Positions 259 through 54,138 of a DNA stretch of 64,000 nt are shown one piece after another. The notes below the pieces were generated by a model. That model ran no database searches, was not told the DNA's origin, and worked only from the letters and a program-made list of their open reading frames with translations. The stretch's first letter is position 1; each line of letters starts with the position of its first letter. Made by a program: the position numbers and the translations under genes. Source of the DNA: Candidatus Peribacteria bacterium (GTDB taxonomy: Bacteria; Patescibacteriota; Gracilibacteria; Peribacterales; Peribacteraceae); contig JAHFJN010000001.1 in the NCBI GenBank assembly GCA_023245865.1, positions 263,649 through 327,648 on the forward strand. The letters are read 5' to 3'.

Positions 259-315
259 ACTACTCGAATCGTAAACGACTTTGCGGTATAATGATAGGAT
301 ACACTCGCACAAACT

Positions 316-735
316 ATGTCAGAGTCCGACACCCTAGCAATACAGGCATACAGAGCTCCCTCCGGTGCACGCTTTTTGATGTGGTACTGGTCGGTACACC
401 CCAGAAAAGTTCTTCGAATGTACGCCTCATACGCGCAGGCCTTCGGCGAAATGTTTTCGATCATATTTCTCCTCAAAACTCTCTTTGCCCCGTGGAAGAG
501 CATACGAGACGCATACCCAACAAAGGGATTCGATATTTCCGCGATTTTGGAAACCTGGACACTCAACGTAACCGCGCGATCTATCGGCTGCATCATTCGT
601 ATCGTCGCGATTGTGGTCGGTGTCATTTTGCAAGTCATTGTACTCGGATTTTTCGTGGCTTACCTCACGCTGTGGTTTGCATTCCCGTTCCTGATTCTTG
701 CTCTGATTCCGCTTTCCGTACTTCCTTTACTCTGA
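316..735 (+). CDS. Small polytopic membrane protein, function unknown
   Basis: 139-aa ORF with a very hydrophobic C-terminal half (IVAIVVGVILQVIVLGFFVAYLTLWFAFPFLILALIPLSVLPLL). TATAAT at 287-292 lies upstream. Its TGA stop (733-735) directly abuts ATG 736 of the next gene. Confidence 0.6.
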   Translation: MSESDTLAIQAYRAPSGARFLMWYWSVHPRKVLRMYASYAQAFGEMFSIIFLLKTLFAPWKSIRDAYPTKGFDISAILETWTLNVTARSIGCIIRIVAIVVGVILQVIVLGFFVAYLTLWFAFPFLILALIPLSVLPLL

Positions 736-6877: not shown

Positions 6878-8542
6878 TTGGTGACAGAGCGTACACTTGA
6901 TCGGATGTCCGATAGGAAACAGTCTTGGCTTGCTGCAGGAGCACTCCTTCTTTTGGTGCTCTGCCTCTACGCACCTTCACTCGAAAACGGTTTCGTTGAT
7001 TGGGACGACGGTTCACTCATCGAACAGAACCCGATCGTGCATGGACTCACGTGGGAGCATATCAAAAGCTCTTTTTCTACCTACGATCCGGAACTCTACA
7101 CGCCACTGACATTCTTAAGCTACCAACTGACCTACGCGATCGCCGATCTACAACCATTTGCGTATCACCTCGGGAATGTGATGCTCCATGCACTGAATGC
7201 GATTCTGATTCTTTGGATGGTATATGTATTGAGACGCAAAAAATTCGAAGCGTTCGTGTGTGGACTACTGTTCGCAGTCCATCCACTCAATACTGAGGCA
7301 GTTGCATGGGCGAGCGCACGGAAGGATGTGCTTGCGGCGTTTTTTTTCCTCTCATCCATTGTTGCGTATTTGTATAGAGGCGAGGGGAAAAAATATTATT
7401 TCCTGAGTATTCTGTTTTTTCTTTTGGGACTTCTCTCGAAGGTCAGCATCCTCATGCTGCCCCTTGCACTTGTTTTGATCGATCGATTGCAAGGCAGACA
7501 TTTCGATCGCAAACAATTGATGGAAAAAGCCCCGTACATGTTTCTGAGCATCGTCTTTGGAATCGTCGCAGTGTTTGGTAAGTTCGCAAATACATCTTTT
7601 TACTGGGAGAAATTTCTTCTCGGATGCAAAGCGATTGTTTTTTACCTCGGCAAATTATTTCTGCCCGGTCACTTTTCTCTTCTCTATCCTTACACGCAAA
7701 CAATTTCTCTCGCATCGACGGACATTCTTCTCTCCGTTCTTGCTGTGATCGCTCTTTGCGTTACATCGATCCTCGTACGTAAACGGTATCCTCTTGTTTT
7801 CTTTTGCTGGTGGTGGTACGTGATACTGCTTCTGCCAACCTTTACGACGATCGCCAAGGGGCACGATGCGGCACTGGATGTGTACTTTGCGTCTGATCGC
7901 TATGCCTATGTTCCCTCCATTGGGATCCTGATACTTATAGCGACAGTAGTCGATGTTCTTTACCGAAAATTCCAAGCAGTTGCCATCGCATTTGTCTCGT
8001 TCACTTTCCTCGTCCTCATCATGCTGACGTATCACCAGAGTCTTGTGTGGTCTGACACAGAATCACTCTTTCGGAGTGTCTTAGCATCATATCCCAATTC
8101 CCACGTGGCACATACGCAACTCGGCGTCGTCCTCTTCAATCGCGATGAAATCGATGGTGCTTTTGCAGAATTTCAGAAAGCGCTCGCCATCCGTCCCGAT
8201 GGAACTGCGTACTATGACATCGGACAGATCTATCTCAAAAAAGGAATGATCGATGAAGCAATGCAAGCGTACCGGAGTGCCATTGTCGCAAATCCCGTCG
8301 ATCCGGACCCGTACATTAATCTCGGTGCTCTTCTCCTACAGCAAGGCAAGGACAAGGAGGCACTCGCAATTCTTGAACCGGCAAAGGATTTGAAGTCCGA
8401 TTCCCGACTCTATATCAATTTGGGTCTCGCCTACGAGCATCTCGGACGCAAAAAGGATGCTATCGATGCCTACAAGCGTGCACTCGAACTTGATCCTGAG
8501 AATGAGGAGATCCGCCAATCACTGAGTGAGCTTTCGCAATGA
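6878..8542 (+). CDS. Polytopic membrane protein with C-terminal TPR repeats, TMTC/PMT-like (GT-C type) glycosyltransferase candidate
   Basis: 554 aa. N-terminus has NGFVDWDDGSLIEQNP and many TM segments. The C-terminus has TPR-like repeats (AFAEFQKALAIRPD.., AMQAYRSAIVANP.., AIDAYKRALELDPEN). GTG start listed; ATG 6905 is an alternative. Confidence 0.75.
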   Translation: MVTERTLDRMSDRKQSWLAAGALLLLVLCLYAPSLENGFVDWDDGSLIEQNPIVHGLTWEHIKSSFSTYDPELYTPLTFLSYQLTYAIADLQPFAYHLGNVMLHALNAILILWMVYVLRRKKFEAFVCGLLFAVHPLNTEAVAWASARKDVLAAFFFLSSIVAYLYRGEGKKYYFLSILFFLLGLLSKVSILMLPLALVLIDRLQGRHFDRKQLMEKAPYMFLSIVFGIVAVFGKFANTSFYWEKFLLGCKAIVFYLGKLFLPGHFSLLYPYTQTISLASTDILLSVLAVIALCVTSILVRKRYPLVFFCWWWYVILLLPTFTTIAKGHDAALDVYFASDRYAYVPSIGILILIATVVDVLYRKFQAVAIAFVSFTFLVLIMLTYHQSLVWSDTESLFRSVLASYPNSHVAHTQLGVVLFNRDEIDGAFAEFQKALAIRPDGTAYYDIGQIYLKKGMIDEAMQAYRSAIVANPVDPDPYINLGALLLQQGKDKEALAILEPAKDLKSDSRLYINLGLAYEHLGRKKDAIDAYKRALELDPENEEIRQSLSELSQ

Positions 8543-9850: not shown

Positions 9851-9937
9851 GCCGATGTGGCGGAATTGGTAGACGCGCACGCTTCAGGAGCGTGTATCCG
9901 CAAGGATGTGAGAGTTCGAGTCTCTCCATCGGCACCA
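9851..9937 (+). tRNA. tRNA-Leu (anticodon CAG), class II, CCA encoded
   Basis: GCCGATG acceptor pairs with CATCGGC. Anticodon arm is CACGC-TTCAGGA-GCGTG, with a long variable arm TATCCGCAAGGATGT and T arm GAGAG-TTCGAGT-CTCTC, then ACCA. Confidence 0.9.
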
Positions 9938-9978
9938 GTATGGAGAGACGAGAAGCCTGTGGTGAGCTTGACGAACCA

Positions 9979-9997
9979 AGTCTCTCCATCGGCACCA
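9979..9997 (+). repeat. Exact 19-nt direct copy of the tRNA-Leu 3' end
   Basis: AGTCTCTCCATCGGCACCA occurs at 9919-9937 (tRNA 3' end) and again at 9979-9997. Confidence 0.85.
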
Positions 9998-10017: not shown

Positions 10018-12039
10018 ATGAAGCGCATCTCCTTATCACGGTCCAGCGAATGGGTTGTTCTCCTCCTCATTGCATTTTCCATACTCTGGCGCGGTGGCAA
10101 AGGGATCGAATCCACACTGTTGCTTGCACTCGTCGCTGGCTTTGTGACACTCATCTACAGTGCTCGCAAGATTCTGCGGATCAGGCATCGTTTGCCTGAC
10201 GGAGTACGGACCGGCCTGCCCAAGAGTAATGCCCAAGTACCACTTTCTCTTTGGGGGGTAGCGTTTCTCTTTGTTCTCTGGACGCTTCTTAGTTGGATTT
10301 TTTCTGATACCCGCAACTACGGACTCGATGAGGTAATCCGCGATGCGTCGTTGCTCCTTCTTTTTTTATGGATCGTTCGTGCAGGGGTTGATGGCATGCA
10401 GGGTGCGCTTTTTGATCGTTTCGTTCGATTCGTAGCGTACGGTGCGATTTCCTCCTCCATTGTCGGACTCTTTGTCTACATGCTGCAGCCTGCAAACCGG
10501 TTCGTCGGAACATTTTTTTACATATTCTCCCATGCTGACTACTGGCCCAACGCTTGGGCAGAGTTTGTCCTCCTCAGCTGGCCGTTTGTACTCATTGCCT
10601 ACATCAGAGAACAACGCACAAGGGTGAAGAGGTTGCTTCTTTGTGGCTTCACACTGCTTCTTACCTCCTTGCTTCTTAGCTACTCAAGAGGGGGTTTACT
10701 GGTCTTCTGCGTTCAGATGCTTCTGGGGGTCGGCTTTCTTATCACCCTTGCTCTTCATGATGTTCGGTTTCGCCGTACACTTCGCATGCAGCGCAGTCGT
10801 ACTGTCATTTGTTTCCTGGCGATTACCGCGTCTGCTTTCCTCCTTGCAGGCTGTATCAATGTTGTTCGCTCAACTTTGTACACAGTTCAATCTGCTCAAG
10901 AAAAGATTACATTCACCGCCGCCGAGGGTACATCGTCCATTCAGGAACGGATCCAATTTTGGAAGCAAGCGCTGACCCTTTCTTTCCATCATCCGCTTCT
11001 TGGATATGGCCCCTATAGTTTTCGATTTGAACAGCCTTGGCTTGCAGAAGGTGTGCTGCAGACATCGGATCATCCCCATAACGTTCTGCTGAAGCTTGCC
11101 ATGGAGCGTGGCTGGCCTGCCGTGTTCCTTTTCGTGTTGCTGATCGCAGCTGTCCTATGGAAATCTTTGCTTGCCTACCGCCGTGATGCGGCGTCCATCC
11201 TCATGATGATTTCTGTGCTCGGAGTACTTCTGCACAACTTGATTGATTACAATCTCCAATTTGTCGCCATTGCGTTACCGTTCTGGCTCTCGCTCGGGTT
11301 TCTTGTCGTTCCGGAATCCTCAGAGCAATCGATCGTTACATCATTCGGTAAATGGAAAAGAGCACAGTATCTATCCTACGTAAAAATTCTCGCAGCAATA
11401 GTCATTCTATGCGTGACTGGATTCGAATCGATCAGCCTTGCATCGACTGCACTTGCACGTAGTTTAATAGCACGGGGAGAACTATCGCGTTCATTGTACT
11501 GGTACGGTTTTTCCGATCACACTCTTTTTGGTAGAGATATCTATCTGAAAGAAGCTGAATTGTCTCTGCAACGTAGTAAGCTCATCGATGCCCAGGAATT
11601 TCTGTCGTCGTATCGTCAGCAAAACTCAGTCGATTATCGTTTCTGGAAGCTGCAGGGAGTCCTTCAGTTTCGTCAGGGCGACATTGTAGCTGCGAAGGAT
11701 TCACTCAAGAGAGCGTTCGAGATCGGAAAGTACATGGATCTCGATATCCTGCACCTCGTCCTCAGTACGGCAAAGACAGAACAGGACCGACAACAGCTTC
11801 TTCCCGGTAAAATGATCTATGATGCTGTTTTTTCGGATTTCTCTGATGCCATTCTTCATAATACTCACTATGTTTCCCTTTCGCAGAATCCTGAGTACCT
11901 CATGGCGGTTTCGAGAGATCTCGGTAAGCTCTTTCCGTCTGACGCGAAGCGTTACACTGTCATTGCCAGAAAGGCCTACAACGAGGCTTCCATACTGCGA
12001 AAAAATGCCGCAGCGCAGGGCACCGGGTTTCTTTGGTAA
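10018..12039 (+). CDS. O-antigen ligase/polymerase-like (Wzy_C-type) membrane protein with a soluble helical-repeat C-terminal domain
   Basis: 673 aa, many TM segments, SYSRGGLL and DHPHNVLLKLAMERGW motifs typical of the O-antigen ligase family. The C-terminal ~200 aa are TPR-like. Confidence 0.8.
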   Translation: MKRISLSRSSEWVVLLLIAFSILWRGGKGIESTLLLALVAGFVTLIYSARKILRIRHRLPDGVRTGLPKSNAQVPLSLWGVAFLFVLWTLLSWIFSDTRNYGLDEVIRDASLLLLFLWIVRAGVDGMQGALFDRFVRFVAYGAISSSIVGLFVYMLQPANRFVGTFFYIFSHADYWPNAWAEFVLLSWPFVLIAYIREQRTRVKRLLLCGFTLLLTSLLLSYSRGGLLVFCVQMLLGVGFLITLALHDVRFRRTLRMQRSRTVICFLAITASAFLLAGCINVVRSTLYTVQSAQEKITFTAAEGTSSIQERIQFWKQALTLSFHHPLLGYGPYSFRFEQPWLAEGVLQTSDHPHNVLLKLAMERGWPAVFLFVLLIAAVLWKSLLAYRRDAASILMMISVLGVLLHNLIDYNLQFVAIALPFWLSLGFLVVPESSEQSIVTSFGKWKRAQYLSYVKILAAIVILCVTGFESISLASTALARSLIARGELSRSLYWYGFSDHTLFGRDIYLKEAELSLQRSKLIDAQEFLSSYRQQNSVDYRFWKLQGVLQFRQGDIVAAKDSLKRAFEIGKYMDLDILHLVLSTAKTEQDRQQLLPGKMIYDAVFSDFSDAILHNTHYVSLSQNPEYLMAVSRDLGKLFPSDAKRYTVIARKAYNEASILRKNAAAQGTGFLW

Positions 12040-21090: not shown

Positions 21091-21166
21091 TGGTGGGCCA
21101 GGCGGGACTTGAACCCGCGACCAATTGCTTAAGAGGCAACTGCTCTACCAACTGAGCTACTGACCC
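21091..21166 (-). tRNA. tRNA-Lys (anticodon CTT), CCA encoded
   Basis: Reverse complement: GGGTCAG TA GCTC AGTTGGTA GAGC A GTTGC CTCTTAA GCAAT TGGTC GCGGG TTCAAGT CCCGC CTGGCCC ACCA. Confidence 0.9.
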
Positions 21167-21244
21167 GTGATTCGAGAGACCGACTGTAAAGGGTGAACAA
21201 CCGAGCTGCAATGATTTATTACGCCATCGCAAGCGATGGCTAGG

Positions 21245-21262
21245 CAACTGAGCTACTGACCC
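21245..21262 (-). repeat. Exact 18-nt copy of the tRNA-Lys 5' end (nt 1-18), 96 nt upstream of the gene
   Basis: CAACTGAGCTACTGACCC occurs at 21149-21166 (in the tRNA) and at 21245-21262. In the tRNA sense it is followed by hairpin GCCATCG-CTTG-CGATGGC (21223-21240). Confidence 0.85.
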
Positions 21263-50705: not shown

Positions 50706-50745
50706 GAAACCATTGTACGCTATGAGCGTTGCAGTACAATTTCTG

Positions 50746-50764
50746 CGGGCGCGTAGCTCAGTTG
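50746..50764 (+). repeat. Exact 19-nt copy of the tRNA-Ile 5' end (nt 1-19), 96 nt upstream of the gene
   Basis: GGGCGCGTAGCTCAGTTGG occurs at 50746-50764 and 50842-50860. It is followed by hairpin GTATC-GCCTTGGA-GATAC (50770-50787) and AGCTCTGACCAAC (50812-50824). The latter is the reverse complement of D-arm 50856-50868. Confidence 0.85.
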
Positions 50765-50841
50765 GGTCGAGTATCGCCTTGGAGATACGAGCATTATAAA
50801 AAAGCGCGAAGCAGCTCTGACCAACGGTGGTATAGTTGTCA

Positions 50842-50918
50842 TGGGCGCGTAGCTCAGTTGGTCAGAGCTCCGGACTTATAAACCGGCGGTCGATGGTTCA
50901 AATCCATCCGCGCCCACC
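50842..50918 (+). tRNA. tRNA-Ile (anticodon TAT), CCA encoded
   Basis: GGGCGCG TA GCTC AGTTGGTCA GAGC T CCGGA CTTATAA ACCGG CGGTC GATGG TTCAAAT CCATC CGCGCCC ACCA. Anticodon positions 34-36 are TAT. Positions 31 and 39 are A and A. Confidence 0.85.
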
Positions 50919-50919
50919 A

Positions 50920-53895: not shown

Positions 53896-53963
53896 GGAAA
53901 TAGTGTAGTAGACGAGATGTTGTGTGTCTATACTTCGATAGGCTCAGCCTGATACAGATTGTG

Positions 53964-53982
53964 GGGCGCCTAGCTCAGTTGG
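53964..53982 (+). repeat. Exact 19-nt copy of the tRNA-Val 5' end (nt 1-19), 98 nt upstream of the gene
   Basis: GGGCGCCTAGCTCAGTTGG occurs at 53964-53982 and 54062-54080. It is followed by hairpin GAGTGTTC-ACTTGA-GAACAC(G)ACTC (53986-54010) and GCTCTAACCAA (54024-54034). The latter is the reverse complement of D-arm 54077-54087. Confidence 0.85.
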
Positions 53983-54061
53983 ATGGAGTGTTCACTTGAG
54001 AACACGACTCTATAAAGATAAACGCTCTAACCAAATTTTGTTGTATACTTTGCAGCAGCAA

Positions 54062-54138
54062 GGGCGCCTAGCTCAGTTGGTTAGAGCATCTCGTTTACAC
54101 CGAGAGGGTCAGGGGTTCGAATCCCTTGGCGCCCACCA
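54062..54138 (+). tRNA. tRNA-Val (anticodon TAC), CCA encoded
   Basis: GGGCGCC TA GCTC AGTTGGTTA GAGC A TCTCG TTTACAC CGAGA GGGTC AGGGG TTCGAAT CCCTT GGCGCCC ACCA. Confidence 0.9.

Follow-up and report, generated by a model that had tools for sequence, protein, structure and literature searches.

Among the seven tRNA genes of the window, that is, the 64,000-nucleotide (64-kb) stretch of contig JAHFJN010000001.1 from a Candidatus Peribacteria bacterium that is the subject of this analysis, those for tRNA-Val, tRNA-Ile and tRNA-Lys are each preceded by an exact copy of the 5′ part of the same tRNA (Table 1). The copy starts at the nucleotide equivalent to tRNA position +1 and is followed by a hairpin and then by an A-rich run. 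This unit, hereafter the module, belongs to a family that recurs upstream of many tRNA genes in Peribacteria and is absent from the corresponding sites of a close relative. We argue, while granting this interpretation only about an even chance of being correct, that the module originates at the level of DNA, through recurrent repair events within the tRNA D-loop.

Three modules in the window

The upstream copies of tRNA-Val (53964-53982 and 54062-54080) and tRNA-Ile (50747-50765 and 50843-50861) match the gene at 19/19 positions, with start-to-start spacings of 98 and 96 nt, respectively, and that of tRNA-Lys, on the minus strand, at 18/18 positions (21245-21262 and 21149-21166; spacing 96 nt). 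A previous inspection of the letters alone (the sequence-only reading) had reported the Val copy beginning at +1, the hairpin, TATAAA and TATACT elements that accompany it, the three offsets and the presence of CTTG in the hairpin loop at all three loci; each of these is found as described, CTTG lying in or inside the loop. The same architecture had been claimed for the Ile and Lys loci, and both copies are indeed exact, but the Ile copy starts at 50747 rather than at 50746, and the Lys module has no inverted copy of the D-arm. At the Val locus this inverted copy is, as had been stated, a perfect reverse complement (54024-54034 against 54077-54087, 11/11), and at the Ile locus the inverted arm matches at 17/20 positions (50813-50832 against 50850-50869), with an exact core of 13 nt (50813-50825).

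The window contains 10 occurrences of the D-box 11-mer TAGCTCAGTTG where 0.8 would be expected, and outside tRNA genes the 11-mer is confined to the three upstream copies, save one match with 1 mismatch at 7124. Thus, the observation at three loci is real and far beyond chance. Outside the tRNA-derived parts the three copies are <62% identical to each other, and the other four tRNAs of the window (Leu, Pro-CGG, Phe and Ala-CGC) have no upstream copy. ARAGORN, which had been suggested as a check, and Rfam call the seven genuine tRNAs only and nothing on 53964-54061 or 50747-50842, even at E up to 10; this rules out the copy as a second tRNA or pseudogene (RF00005), as the sequence-only reading had surmised.

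Table 1. Features of the three modules and their surroundings, in window positions; L208 is the close relative discussed in the text
Feature	Position	Strand	Remarks
Val upstream promoter-like region P1	53925-53963	+	TATACT 53929-53934, TGATACAGA 53950-53958; orthologous to the sole tRNA-Val promoter region of L208
9-nt perfect palindrome GGCTCAGCC	53941-53949	.	In the window, absent from L208 (alignment)
Exact copy of tRNA-Val nt 1-19	53964-53982	+	Acceptor 5′ strand and D-box to G19; site where the L208 tRNA itself starts
Val hairpin	53986-54010	+	Perfect core GTGTTC 53988-53993 / GAACAC 54000-54005, loop ACTTGA; non-canonical variant of the family insert GTCGA[palindrome]GAGC
Val A-rich run TATAAAGATAAAC	54011-54023	+	TATAAA at 54011-54016; every family member has such a run 3′ of its hairpin
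Inverted copy of tRNA-Val nt 16-26 (D-loop and D-stem 3′ strand)	54024-54034	+	Repeat comparison
Val proximal spacer with -10-like box P2	54035-54061	+	TATACT 54044-54049, 12-nt leader; within the 98 nt absent from L208
Intact tRNA-Val(TAC)	54062-54138	+	ARAGORN, Rfam
Ile distal -10-like box	50730-50746	+	TACAAT 50735-50740, then 6-nt leader; resembles TGCGTATCAT of L208
Exact copy of tRNA-Ile nt 1-19	50747-50765	+	Sequence comparison
Ile canonical insert	50766-50792	+	GTCGA, hairpin GTATC / GATAC (loop GCCTTGGA), GAGC
Ile A-rich run ATTATAAAAAAG	50793-50804	+	
Inverted copy of tRNA-Ile nt 15-27 (AGCTCTGACCAAC)	50813-50825	+	Sequence comparison
Ile proximal promoter-like box GGTGGTATAGTT and leader	50826-50842	+	Orthologous to the promoter adjoining tRNA-Ile in L208
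Intact tRNA-Ile(TAT)	50843-50919	+	ARAGORN, Rfam
Exact copy of tRNA-Lys nt 1-18	21245-21262	-	Sequence comparison
Lys perfect palindrome GCCATCG-CTTG-CGATGGC	21223-21240	-	
Lys A-rich run GTAATAAATCATTG and spacer	21167-21222	-	21193-21210 can pair with the 5′ copy, with many G.U pairs
Intact tRNA-Lys(CTT)	21091-21166	-	ARAGORN, Rfam

Empty sites in a close relative

Loci of relatives or metagenome contigs in the comparison set are denoted by labels of the series L004-L208. In L208, a close relative in which the adjacent ABC substrate-binding protein (SBP) is 93% identical at the amino acid level, there is no module at tRNA-Val or tRNA-Ile. At the Val locus of L208, the region orthologous to window positions 53925-53963 runs straight into the tRNA; given that this promoter abuts the gene directly, the window holds a 98-nt insertion. 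The two genomes thus display a clean empty site and a presence/absence polymorphism between close relatives, one of the patterns by which a homing cassette is recognized. At the Ile locus (window 50706-50919 against L208 3098-3247), the tRNA together with its promoter forms a cassette that is inverted between the genomes, and the block specific to the window falls between two -10-like boxes that are adjacent in L208.

The window and L208 also differ by a small palindromic indel, the 9-nt palindrome GGCTCAGCC. On a broader scale, tRNA-Val and tRNA-Ile switch strand relative to the same neighbor genes many times across the 80 species sampled (loci L004-L083).

A lineage-wide family of modules

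Orthologous loci were fetched from 80 species-level Peribacteria genomes via the SBP gene, which sits between tRNA-Val and tRNA-Ile, and further members of the family were collected by a motif scan of metagenomes. In the census of 129 tRNA-Val, tRNA-Ile and tRNA-Pro loci from these 80 species, an upstream copy, defined as an exact upstream direct match of at least 11 nt, is present at 38 loci (about 30%); about 70% of the orthologous loci are without one. The copies start at tRNA nt 1-4 in 41/46 cases, and their ends cluster at nt 19 (17 copies) and at nt 12-13 (16 copies). The metagenome members lie upstream of tRNA-Ala(TGC, GGC), Pro, Val(GAC), Ile(GAT), Trp, Thr(TGT, GGT) and His, and at least one of them, L084, could be assigned to the Peregrinibacteria. 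The recurrence at orthologous loci and next to other tRNA types indicates that the family is real, lineage-wide and not bound to one tRNA, and it upholds the earlier contention that a common mechanism, rather than random decay, accounts for the shared architecture.

Two classes of modules can be distinguished by layout. In class A, which includes the three modules of the window, tRNA nt 1-19 are followed by a perfect palindrome, an A-rich run (consensus about CATAAAAAAG), often an inverted copy, a spacer with a -10-like box and the tRNA itself. The module length is about 75-115 bp; the repeats are 77-79 nt apart in the window, and the largest interval seen in relatives is about 155 nt. The canonical frame is GTCGA[palindrome]GAGC, and the combination GCTC-AGTTGG-GTCGA...GAGC resembles a D-arm with a hairpin in its loop; accordingly, the hairpin of canonical members is inserted in a D-arm-like frame and does not, contrary to what had been suggested, occupy the position of an anticodon arm. 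A role as an anticodon-arm mimic was rejected on the same grounds and on the dimensions of the hairpins, with stems of 2 to 12 bp and loops of 3 to 8 nt. The census of hairpins and inverted copies, which covers 41 elements with hand-anchored hairpins, shows the exact CUUG loop in 7/41 elements and an embedded one in 3 more, so that CUUG is common but does not hold up as a generally shared functional motif. A cognate inverted copy of at least 9 nt (nt ~13-30) is present in 22/41 elements; it reaches up to 19 nt and takes in the tRNA-specific nt 26-32. In L090, L137 and L084, a fold-back junction is visible: nt 24-32 are first repeated briefly in direct orientation, and a turn of 2-4 nt then leads into the inverted copy.

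In class B, tRNA nt 1-12/13 are followed by a structured insert of 30-45 nt (CCACCTTCG-[hairpin]-CTACGGTGGRCARG) and then by nt 13-24, so that the insert interrupts the 5′ copy at nt 12/13; in L036 and L081 the inserts are nested. Such modules occur upstream of tRNA-Ile or tRNA-Val in L018, L029, L036, L037, L038, L044, L061, L065, L079, L081, L082 and others, and inserts of both classes are found together in L069 and in the distal unit of L184. The class B motif, CCACCTTCG or CTACGGTGGRCARG, is not found in the window. The ends of class B inserts resemble those of a longer structured region, ACCTTCGCGCAGCGAAGGT...GCTACGGTTGGCARGCC, that is located after the tRNA CCA and before GIY-YIG open reading frames (ORFs) downstream of tRNAs in L055, L084 and L178. 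Neither the class B insert nor this longer region has an Rfam match, and the identification of the latter as a group I intron was dropped on that account.

Several further arrangements depart from these layouts. In L143, L145, L186, L100 and L176, the D-loop harbors an insert of about 115 nt that opens with GTCGAG-hairpin-CGAG and continues with a long extra stem, ACGGGTGG...CCACCCTGG, beyond which the upstream copy resumes with tRNA nt 21-34 and stops just 5′ of the anticodon. In L130 (1700-1992, minus strand), two tandem tRNA-Pro-like genes carry a class A insert within an otherwise complete tRNA, with no downstream duplicate and with an apparent 8-nt anticodon loop, TTTAGGGA. In L138 (~300-560, minus strand), a second tRNA-His-like copy, in which a palindrome, an A-run and another palindrome are inserted between nt 19 and nt 24, lies 3′ of an intact tRNA-His that has a class A module upstream. 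Redundant tRNA copies with similar palindromic loop inserts are found in L130, the third unit of L138, L176, L051 and L184. Finally, the tRNA-Val of L020 (5495-5571, minus strand) has A19 and U56 (GGTTTGAATCC), which looks like compensation within the universal tertiary pair G19-C56; A19 is common to the tRNA and its copy, but this was rejected as proof of co-evolution because it is ambiguous, a 2-nt deletion explaining it equally well.

Perfect palindromes, turnover and tandem arrays

The genuine hairpins of the 41 elements comprise about 200 Watson-Crick pairs, 3 G.U and 0 A.C pairs, and nearly every stem has a different sequence. RNA stems under compensatory evolution normally pass through G.U intermediates. 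That the palindromes and the direct and inverted repeats are kept perfect therefore points to a templated process at the DNA level and not to compensatory evolution at the RNA level. Direct CGAG sequences flank the palindrome in 24 canonical copies, and the D-box together with the inverted D-arm makes up a pair of imperfect inverted ends.

Comparison of modules from close relatives reveals outright exchange of the hairpin between conserved flanks. The Ile modules of L015 and L157 have different hairpins and are about 90% identical in the rest; L019 and L123 differ mainly at the hairpin apex; and L084 and L106 have 29/30 nt of the distal promoter and leader in common, with everything between copy and tRNA different. 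Within single genomes, the Val and Ile modules of L015 are 73% identical over their whole length, including the promoter box, each with the acceptor strand of its own tRNA, and the Val and Ile cores of L067 are about 90% identical over the core only. These are the best pairs within a genome, and near-identical copies of the type of miniature inverted-repeat transposable elements (MITEs) were not encountered within one genome. Tandem units are identical in L007 and L046 and near-identical in L123. Cores are thus exchanged between the tRNA loci of one genome, and modules are amplified in tandem.

Older distal units with a mutated copy and a decayed hairpin are found in the Ile locus of L067 (3/19 positions of the copy changed), L088 and L184; in the Ile locus of L067, a perfect repeat of 74 nt brackets the newest hairpin and A-run only. 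Arrays with decayed distal units imply repeated events at one site, with old units pushed upstream. Copy numbers of the units may be underestimated, as runs of N (scaffold gaps) abut the repeat units upstream of tRNA-Val in L064 and L075; assemblies probably collapse or break at module arrays.

Promoter-like boxes and folding of the module

Promoters were assessed by a census of -10 boxes alone (TAnnnT at a tRNA-like distance), a classical -35/-10 scan being uninformative. A -10-like box is present upstream of 87% of the 5′ copies and 78% of the tRNAs behind them, compared with 74% of plain tRNAs and 44% of shuffled sequences. Scans for intrinsic terminators at the hairpins returned none on either strand; given that the A-run lies 3′ of the hairpin on the tRNA strand, a T-run precedes the hairpin on the other strand, unlike in a terminator.

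The Val and Lys leaders fold better than shuffled sequences on the tRNA strand (z -2.6 each), whereas their antisense strands do not, and the Ile leader has z -0.09. Across the 39 elements used for the comparisons of folding and of flanks, the mean z is -1.13 for the sense and -0.82 for the antisense strand (P = 0.10), and the difference in minimum free energy is an effect of composition. The duplex between the copy and the rest of the element has a mean z of -0.5, so that a long helix between the 5′ copy and a downstream segment was discarded as a general feature. No module examined matches an Rfam family. The likeness of GUCGA[stem]GAGC to hammerhead, kink-turn and other motifs was dropped on inspection, since the core nucleotides do not fit.

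Association with GIY-YIG nucleases

At several loci a small nuclease gene accompanies a partial tRNA copy. In L051 (~10145-10530, minus strand), a disrupted tRNA-Ile copy (nt 1-40, a perfect palindrome, nt 48-63) is succeeded by a small ORF extending into the intact tRNA-Ile and encoding a GIY-YIG catalytic domain (Pfam PF01541, E = 8e-13). In L176 (~7960-8391, plus strand), a copy of tRNA-Gln nt 1-34, a GIY-YIG ORF and tRNA-Gln follow one another, and L184 (5450-6300, minus strand) presents the mirror image, with tRNA-Ala, a GIY-YIG ORF and two decayed 3′ copies, and with a two-unit class A/B array upstream. An iterated profile (hidden Markov model) search of all loci in the comparison set, window included, yielded 14 GIY-YIG ORFs; for 8/14 a tRNA is no more than 350 nt away, whereas chance would predict 0.21 such cases (P = 0.0036). 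In two cases the stop codon of the ORF is a TAG of the tRNA itself, at nt 8-10 in L051 and within the D-arm CTAGAGC in L184.

Genomic setting and 3′ counterparts

The window derives from the cellular genome of an uncultured bacterium of the candidate phyla radiation (CPR), of the Peribacteria/Peregrinibacteria: it encodes ClpB, GroEL, DnaK, SecG, L9, S16 and the SBP, the homologs of which come from Candidatus Peribacteria/Peregrinibacteria with genomes of about 1.0-1.25 Mb. A phage origin of the window is ruled out by ClpB, GroEL, DnaK, SecG, L9 and S16 together with the Peribacteria homologs. In a comparison of a phage database with the window, the tRNAs were the sole matches, and the search for the core motif of the module in viral contigs gave chance coding matches only. 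The tRNA-Ile with the anticodon TAT, which is uncommon in bacteria, adjoins the SBP/L9 genes in essentially every Peribacteria genome sampled.

A mirror-image arrangement is present at the 3′ end of tRNA-Leu(CAG) in the window (9919-9997, plus strand), where the last 19 nt (9919-9937, to CCA) are repeated at 9979-9997 with an inverted 10-mer, ATGGAGAGAC, in between (9940-9949). Copies of the 3′ part of tRNA-Ile (nt 57-77) are found 147-228 nt downstream of the gene in L022, L035, L036 and L068.

Discussion

The interpretation that we favor, and that we consider about evenly poised between right and wrong, is that the modules are insertion-duplications, generated at the DNA level as the D-loop of tRNA genes repeatedly breaks or is repaired by template switching, and tolerated by virtue of the duplicated tRNA 5′ part. 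Under this scenario, tRNA genes that share the D-box TAGCTCAGYTGG would break repeatedly, or would suffer template switching, at the D-loop (nt 19/20), and repair would copy the palindrome and A-rich core from another module, with the shared D-box serving as the homology anchor. Viable outcomes would be only those that duplicate the tRNA's own 5′ segment and leave the gene complete, which would explain why a copy invariably belongs to the neighboring tRNA and keeps its register. The sharp boundary at +1 could come about without selection if the donor core and the proximal spacer are copied together, with homology ending at G19 and resuming at the first bases of the tRNA. Modules are also lost, for instance through recombination between the 19-nt repeats, an event that restores a clean empty site. 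A plausible driver would be a nuclease resembling homing endonucleases and belonging, like SegB, to the GIY-YIG type, that is associated with tRNAs in this lineage. The module is probably co-transcribed from the distal promoter as a 5′ leader, which would then be trimmed by RNase P, and any effect that it exerts, for example as a second promoter, would be a by-product. Among the explanations offered in the sequence-only reading, those that operate on DNA, namely 5′ duplicates kept identical by conversion and scars on the 5′ side, fit the observations best; as for the leader, RNase P decoy or folding regulator that it also proposed, pairing of the copy with other parts of the element did not prove general and the sense-strand excess in folding fell short of significance once composition was controlled (P = 0.10), while the exactness of the 19 nt despite differing flanks speaks in their favor.

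Several observations sit uneasily with an origin by repair alone. The flanks are alike only at chance level from position -1 in about 25/39 elements, yet the 19 nt average 18.8/19, and paralogous modules that are 27% diverged still have perfect copies; an exact copy with unrelated flanks needs very fast turnover, a copying mechanism exact to +1, or selection on the copy. Function could also be reflected in the -10-like boxes that are kept upstream of both copy and tRNA, and in the core motif GTCGA...GAGC with its A-run that is common to many tRNA types, and stable RNA tetraloops are present, with G-CUUG-C in many hairpins and GNRA in minimal ones. At the Ile locus, the block lies between promoter boxes and not at nt 19/20 of the gene, so that one simple insertion topology does not fit both loci. 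As for the nuclease, the GIY-YIG ORFs are just 80-110 aa long, with a catalytic domain and no obvious DNA-binding domain, and the iterated profile search detected no such ORF anywhere in the 64 kb of the window; a nuclease is thus linked to this genome through relatives and by analogy.

An alternative is a functional cis-acting leader RNA, which we judge unlikely although weighty enough to be taken seriously. In such a case, the distal transcript would start with the 5′ 19 nt of the tRNA and form a D-arm-like junction with a variable hairpin, and it would tune folding, RNase P processing or tRNA yield, or would provide a second co-regulated promoter; the anti-D segment might, with the same modest likelihood as part of this reading, pair either with the decoy or with the real D-arm. 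The exact 19 nt with unrelated flanks, also in the 27%-diverged paralogous modules, the -10-like boxes that both promoters keep at tRNA-like spacing, and the conserved junction nucleotides next to a variable distal stem with CUUG or GNRA loops are all consistent with this view, as are the complementarity of the anti-D segment to the cognate tRNA over up to 19 nt and the folding of the Val and Lys leaders (z -2.6 each in the sense orientation, not in antisense; the Lys stem has 5 G.U pairs). However, the module is dispensable, being absent at both L208 loci and at about 70% of the orthologous loci, and its hairpins are almost devoid of G.U pairs and are replaced wholesale. Furthermore, the copy does not generally pair with other parts of the element (mean z -0.5), the sense strand exceeds the antisense strand only at P = 0.10 with the Ile leader at z -0.09, 19/41 elements, Lys among them, lack an anti-D segment of 9 nt or more, decayed distal units are tolerated, and no Rfam family matches. 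A neutral origin is also conceivable but, in our estimation, rather unlikely: the promoter and the 5′ part of the tRNA would have been duplicated by slippage, later colonized by palindromes and kept identical by conversion, with neither a nuclease nor a dedicated mechanism involved. Perfect repeats do reach 15-40 nt upstream of +1 in L006, L106, L168, L186 and the Ile locus of L067, tandem arrays exist, and the ready origin of small palindromes is shown by the 9-nt indel that separates the window from L208. Against this stand the failure to observe any naked partial duplicate without an insert, the non-random breakpoints (nt 19 or nt 12-13) and the shortness of 19 nt for RecA-type conversion in the face of unrelated flanks; moreover, the same core motif is found at many tRNAs and in many lineages, which indicates that the events are not independent local accidents.

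The remaining possibilities borrow from mobile elements and from RNA processing. If the modules were scars or miniature derivatives of integrative elements that use the tRNA 5′ part as an attachment site for a site-specific recombinase (of the attL/attR type), the direct repeat bounded by a mature tRNA end and the regeneration of an intact gene would be accounted for, as with tRNA-targeting islands, and the repeats at the 3′ ends of tRNA-Leu in the window (9919-9937 / 9979-9997) and of tRNA-Ile in L022, L035, L036 and L068 would be natural counterparts. Such an origin nevertheless appears quite improbable, given that only 75-115 bp separate the repeats, that neither integrase nor cargo is seen in >40 cases, where no ORF is possible, that a cognate acceptor strand would be needed for each of >8 tRNA types, and that the core motif was not found in viral contigs beyond chance coding matches. 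An even more improbable proposition is that the inserts are intron-like intervening sequences removed at the RNA level, as in the disrupted tRNAs of archaea, with the distal 5′ copy and the insert-bearing copies serving as exons. Similar small structured inserts do occur at the loops of several tRNA genes, some of them nested or multiple (L130, L138, L176, L036, L081), and resemble the non-canonical introns of Thermoproteales, but the lineage is bacterial, nearly all cases have an intact tRNA copy alongside, and no bulge-helix-bulge motif is evident at the junctions by visual inspection. In addition, the insert-bearing copies look degenerate: in L130 the anticodon loop has 8 nt, and in L184 palindromes stand in place of arms.

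Insertion-duplication by repair in the D-loop has its closest parallels in the following systems. SegB of phages T4/T6 is a GIY-YIG homing endonuclease that recognizes the conserved T-loop box of tRNA genes and has recently been shown to drive tandem segmental amplification, with microhomology at the tRNA 5′ end (PMC2330249, PMC13096335). In both systems a GIY-YIG gene lies by tRNA genes. Recognition of a conserved tRNA box lets the single enzyme SegB hit many of them, and its cleavage results in non-reciprocal copying and tandem amplification; the ORFs described here are over-represented beside tRNAs, with a partial copy on one side and an intact one on the other. The differences are that SegB belongs to a phage and the modules to a cellular CPR chromosome, in which the ORFs of 80-110 aa have the catalytic domain only and the window has no such ORF; that the breakpoint here is the D-loop (nt 19/20 or 12/13) and not the T-loop or the 3′ end; and that the product is a partial 5′ duplication with palindromic filler and not a repeat of the whole gene. 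Fungal mitochondria have mobile endonuclease ORFs that carry a replacement piece of the gene that they interrupt, and GC-rich palindromic mini-elements, as in the Allomyces atp6 element, the double-hairpin elements and the yeast GC clusters. There, too, insertion brings a copy of the displaced gene part, leaving an intact gene and a fragment, and small perfect palindromes accumulate, but the targets are protein-coding genes of an organelle, whereas here the 5′ part of bacterial tRNA genes is duplicated together with its promoter, in most cases without an ORF.

The attL/attR duplications at tRNA genes share the direct repeat that ends exactly at a mature tRNA terminus and leaves the gene intact; in the modules the repeat is on the 5′ side, the two repeats are <120 bp apart with neither recombinase nor cargo, and one core is found at many tRNA types. 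The disrupted tRNAs of archaea (non-canonical or multiple introns, intron transposition and split tRNAs) likewise have short structured loop inserts, including in the D-loop, that are common to different tRNA genes and are sometimes nested; in the present case, the organism is a bacterium, a complete uninterrupted tRNA follows the interrupted copy, and no bulge-helix-bulge is evident by inspection. Repetitive extragenic palindromic sequences and bacterial interspersed mosaic elements (REP/BIME), Correia elements, Rickettsia palindromic elements and MITEs are all short, non-coding palindromic inserts with many copies per genome that can be co-transcribed and can carry promoter-like boxes; the copies of the modules, in contrast, are not near-identical and are tied to the tRNA D-loop, with cognate direct and inverted copies of the target. 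We found no published description of the module in the literature, and the paper that describes closed Peribacteria genomes makes no reference to elements of this kind. It is conceivable, if doubtful, that the modules reflect a dedicated mechanism undescribed in bacteria, that is, a D-loop-targeted mobile element, possibly assisted by a nuclease or a reverse transcriptase, that copies exactly from the mature 5′ end, and/or a selected leader RNA in which the tRNA-identical 5′ strand and the anti-D segment control the maturation of single-copy CPR tRNA genes. A mobile element of this kind would explain the start at +1 with unrelated flanks.

Survival of an insertion by duplication of the interrupted part is known from organelles and phages but, to our knowledge, has not been described for bacterial chromosomal tRNA genes. 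The modules suggest a testable rule, namely that a selfish insertion in an essential RNA gene seems able to survive only if it duplicates the part that it interrupts. On a practical note, annotation of tRNAs, promoter prediction, small-RNA calling and assembly can all be misled by the exact 19-mers and perfect palindromes. Should the functional interpretation prove to be true, the modules would represent a cis-element of a new kind that acts on tRNA maturation. CPR bacteria have small genomes and single-copy tRNA genes; if insertion-duplication in the D-loop is indeed at work, tRNA genes would be among the most fragile and dynamic sites of these genomes, and the flips of tRNA orientation and the assembly breaks at these loci would follow from their being rearrangement hot spots.

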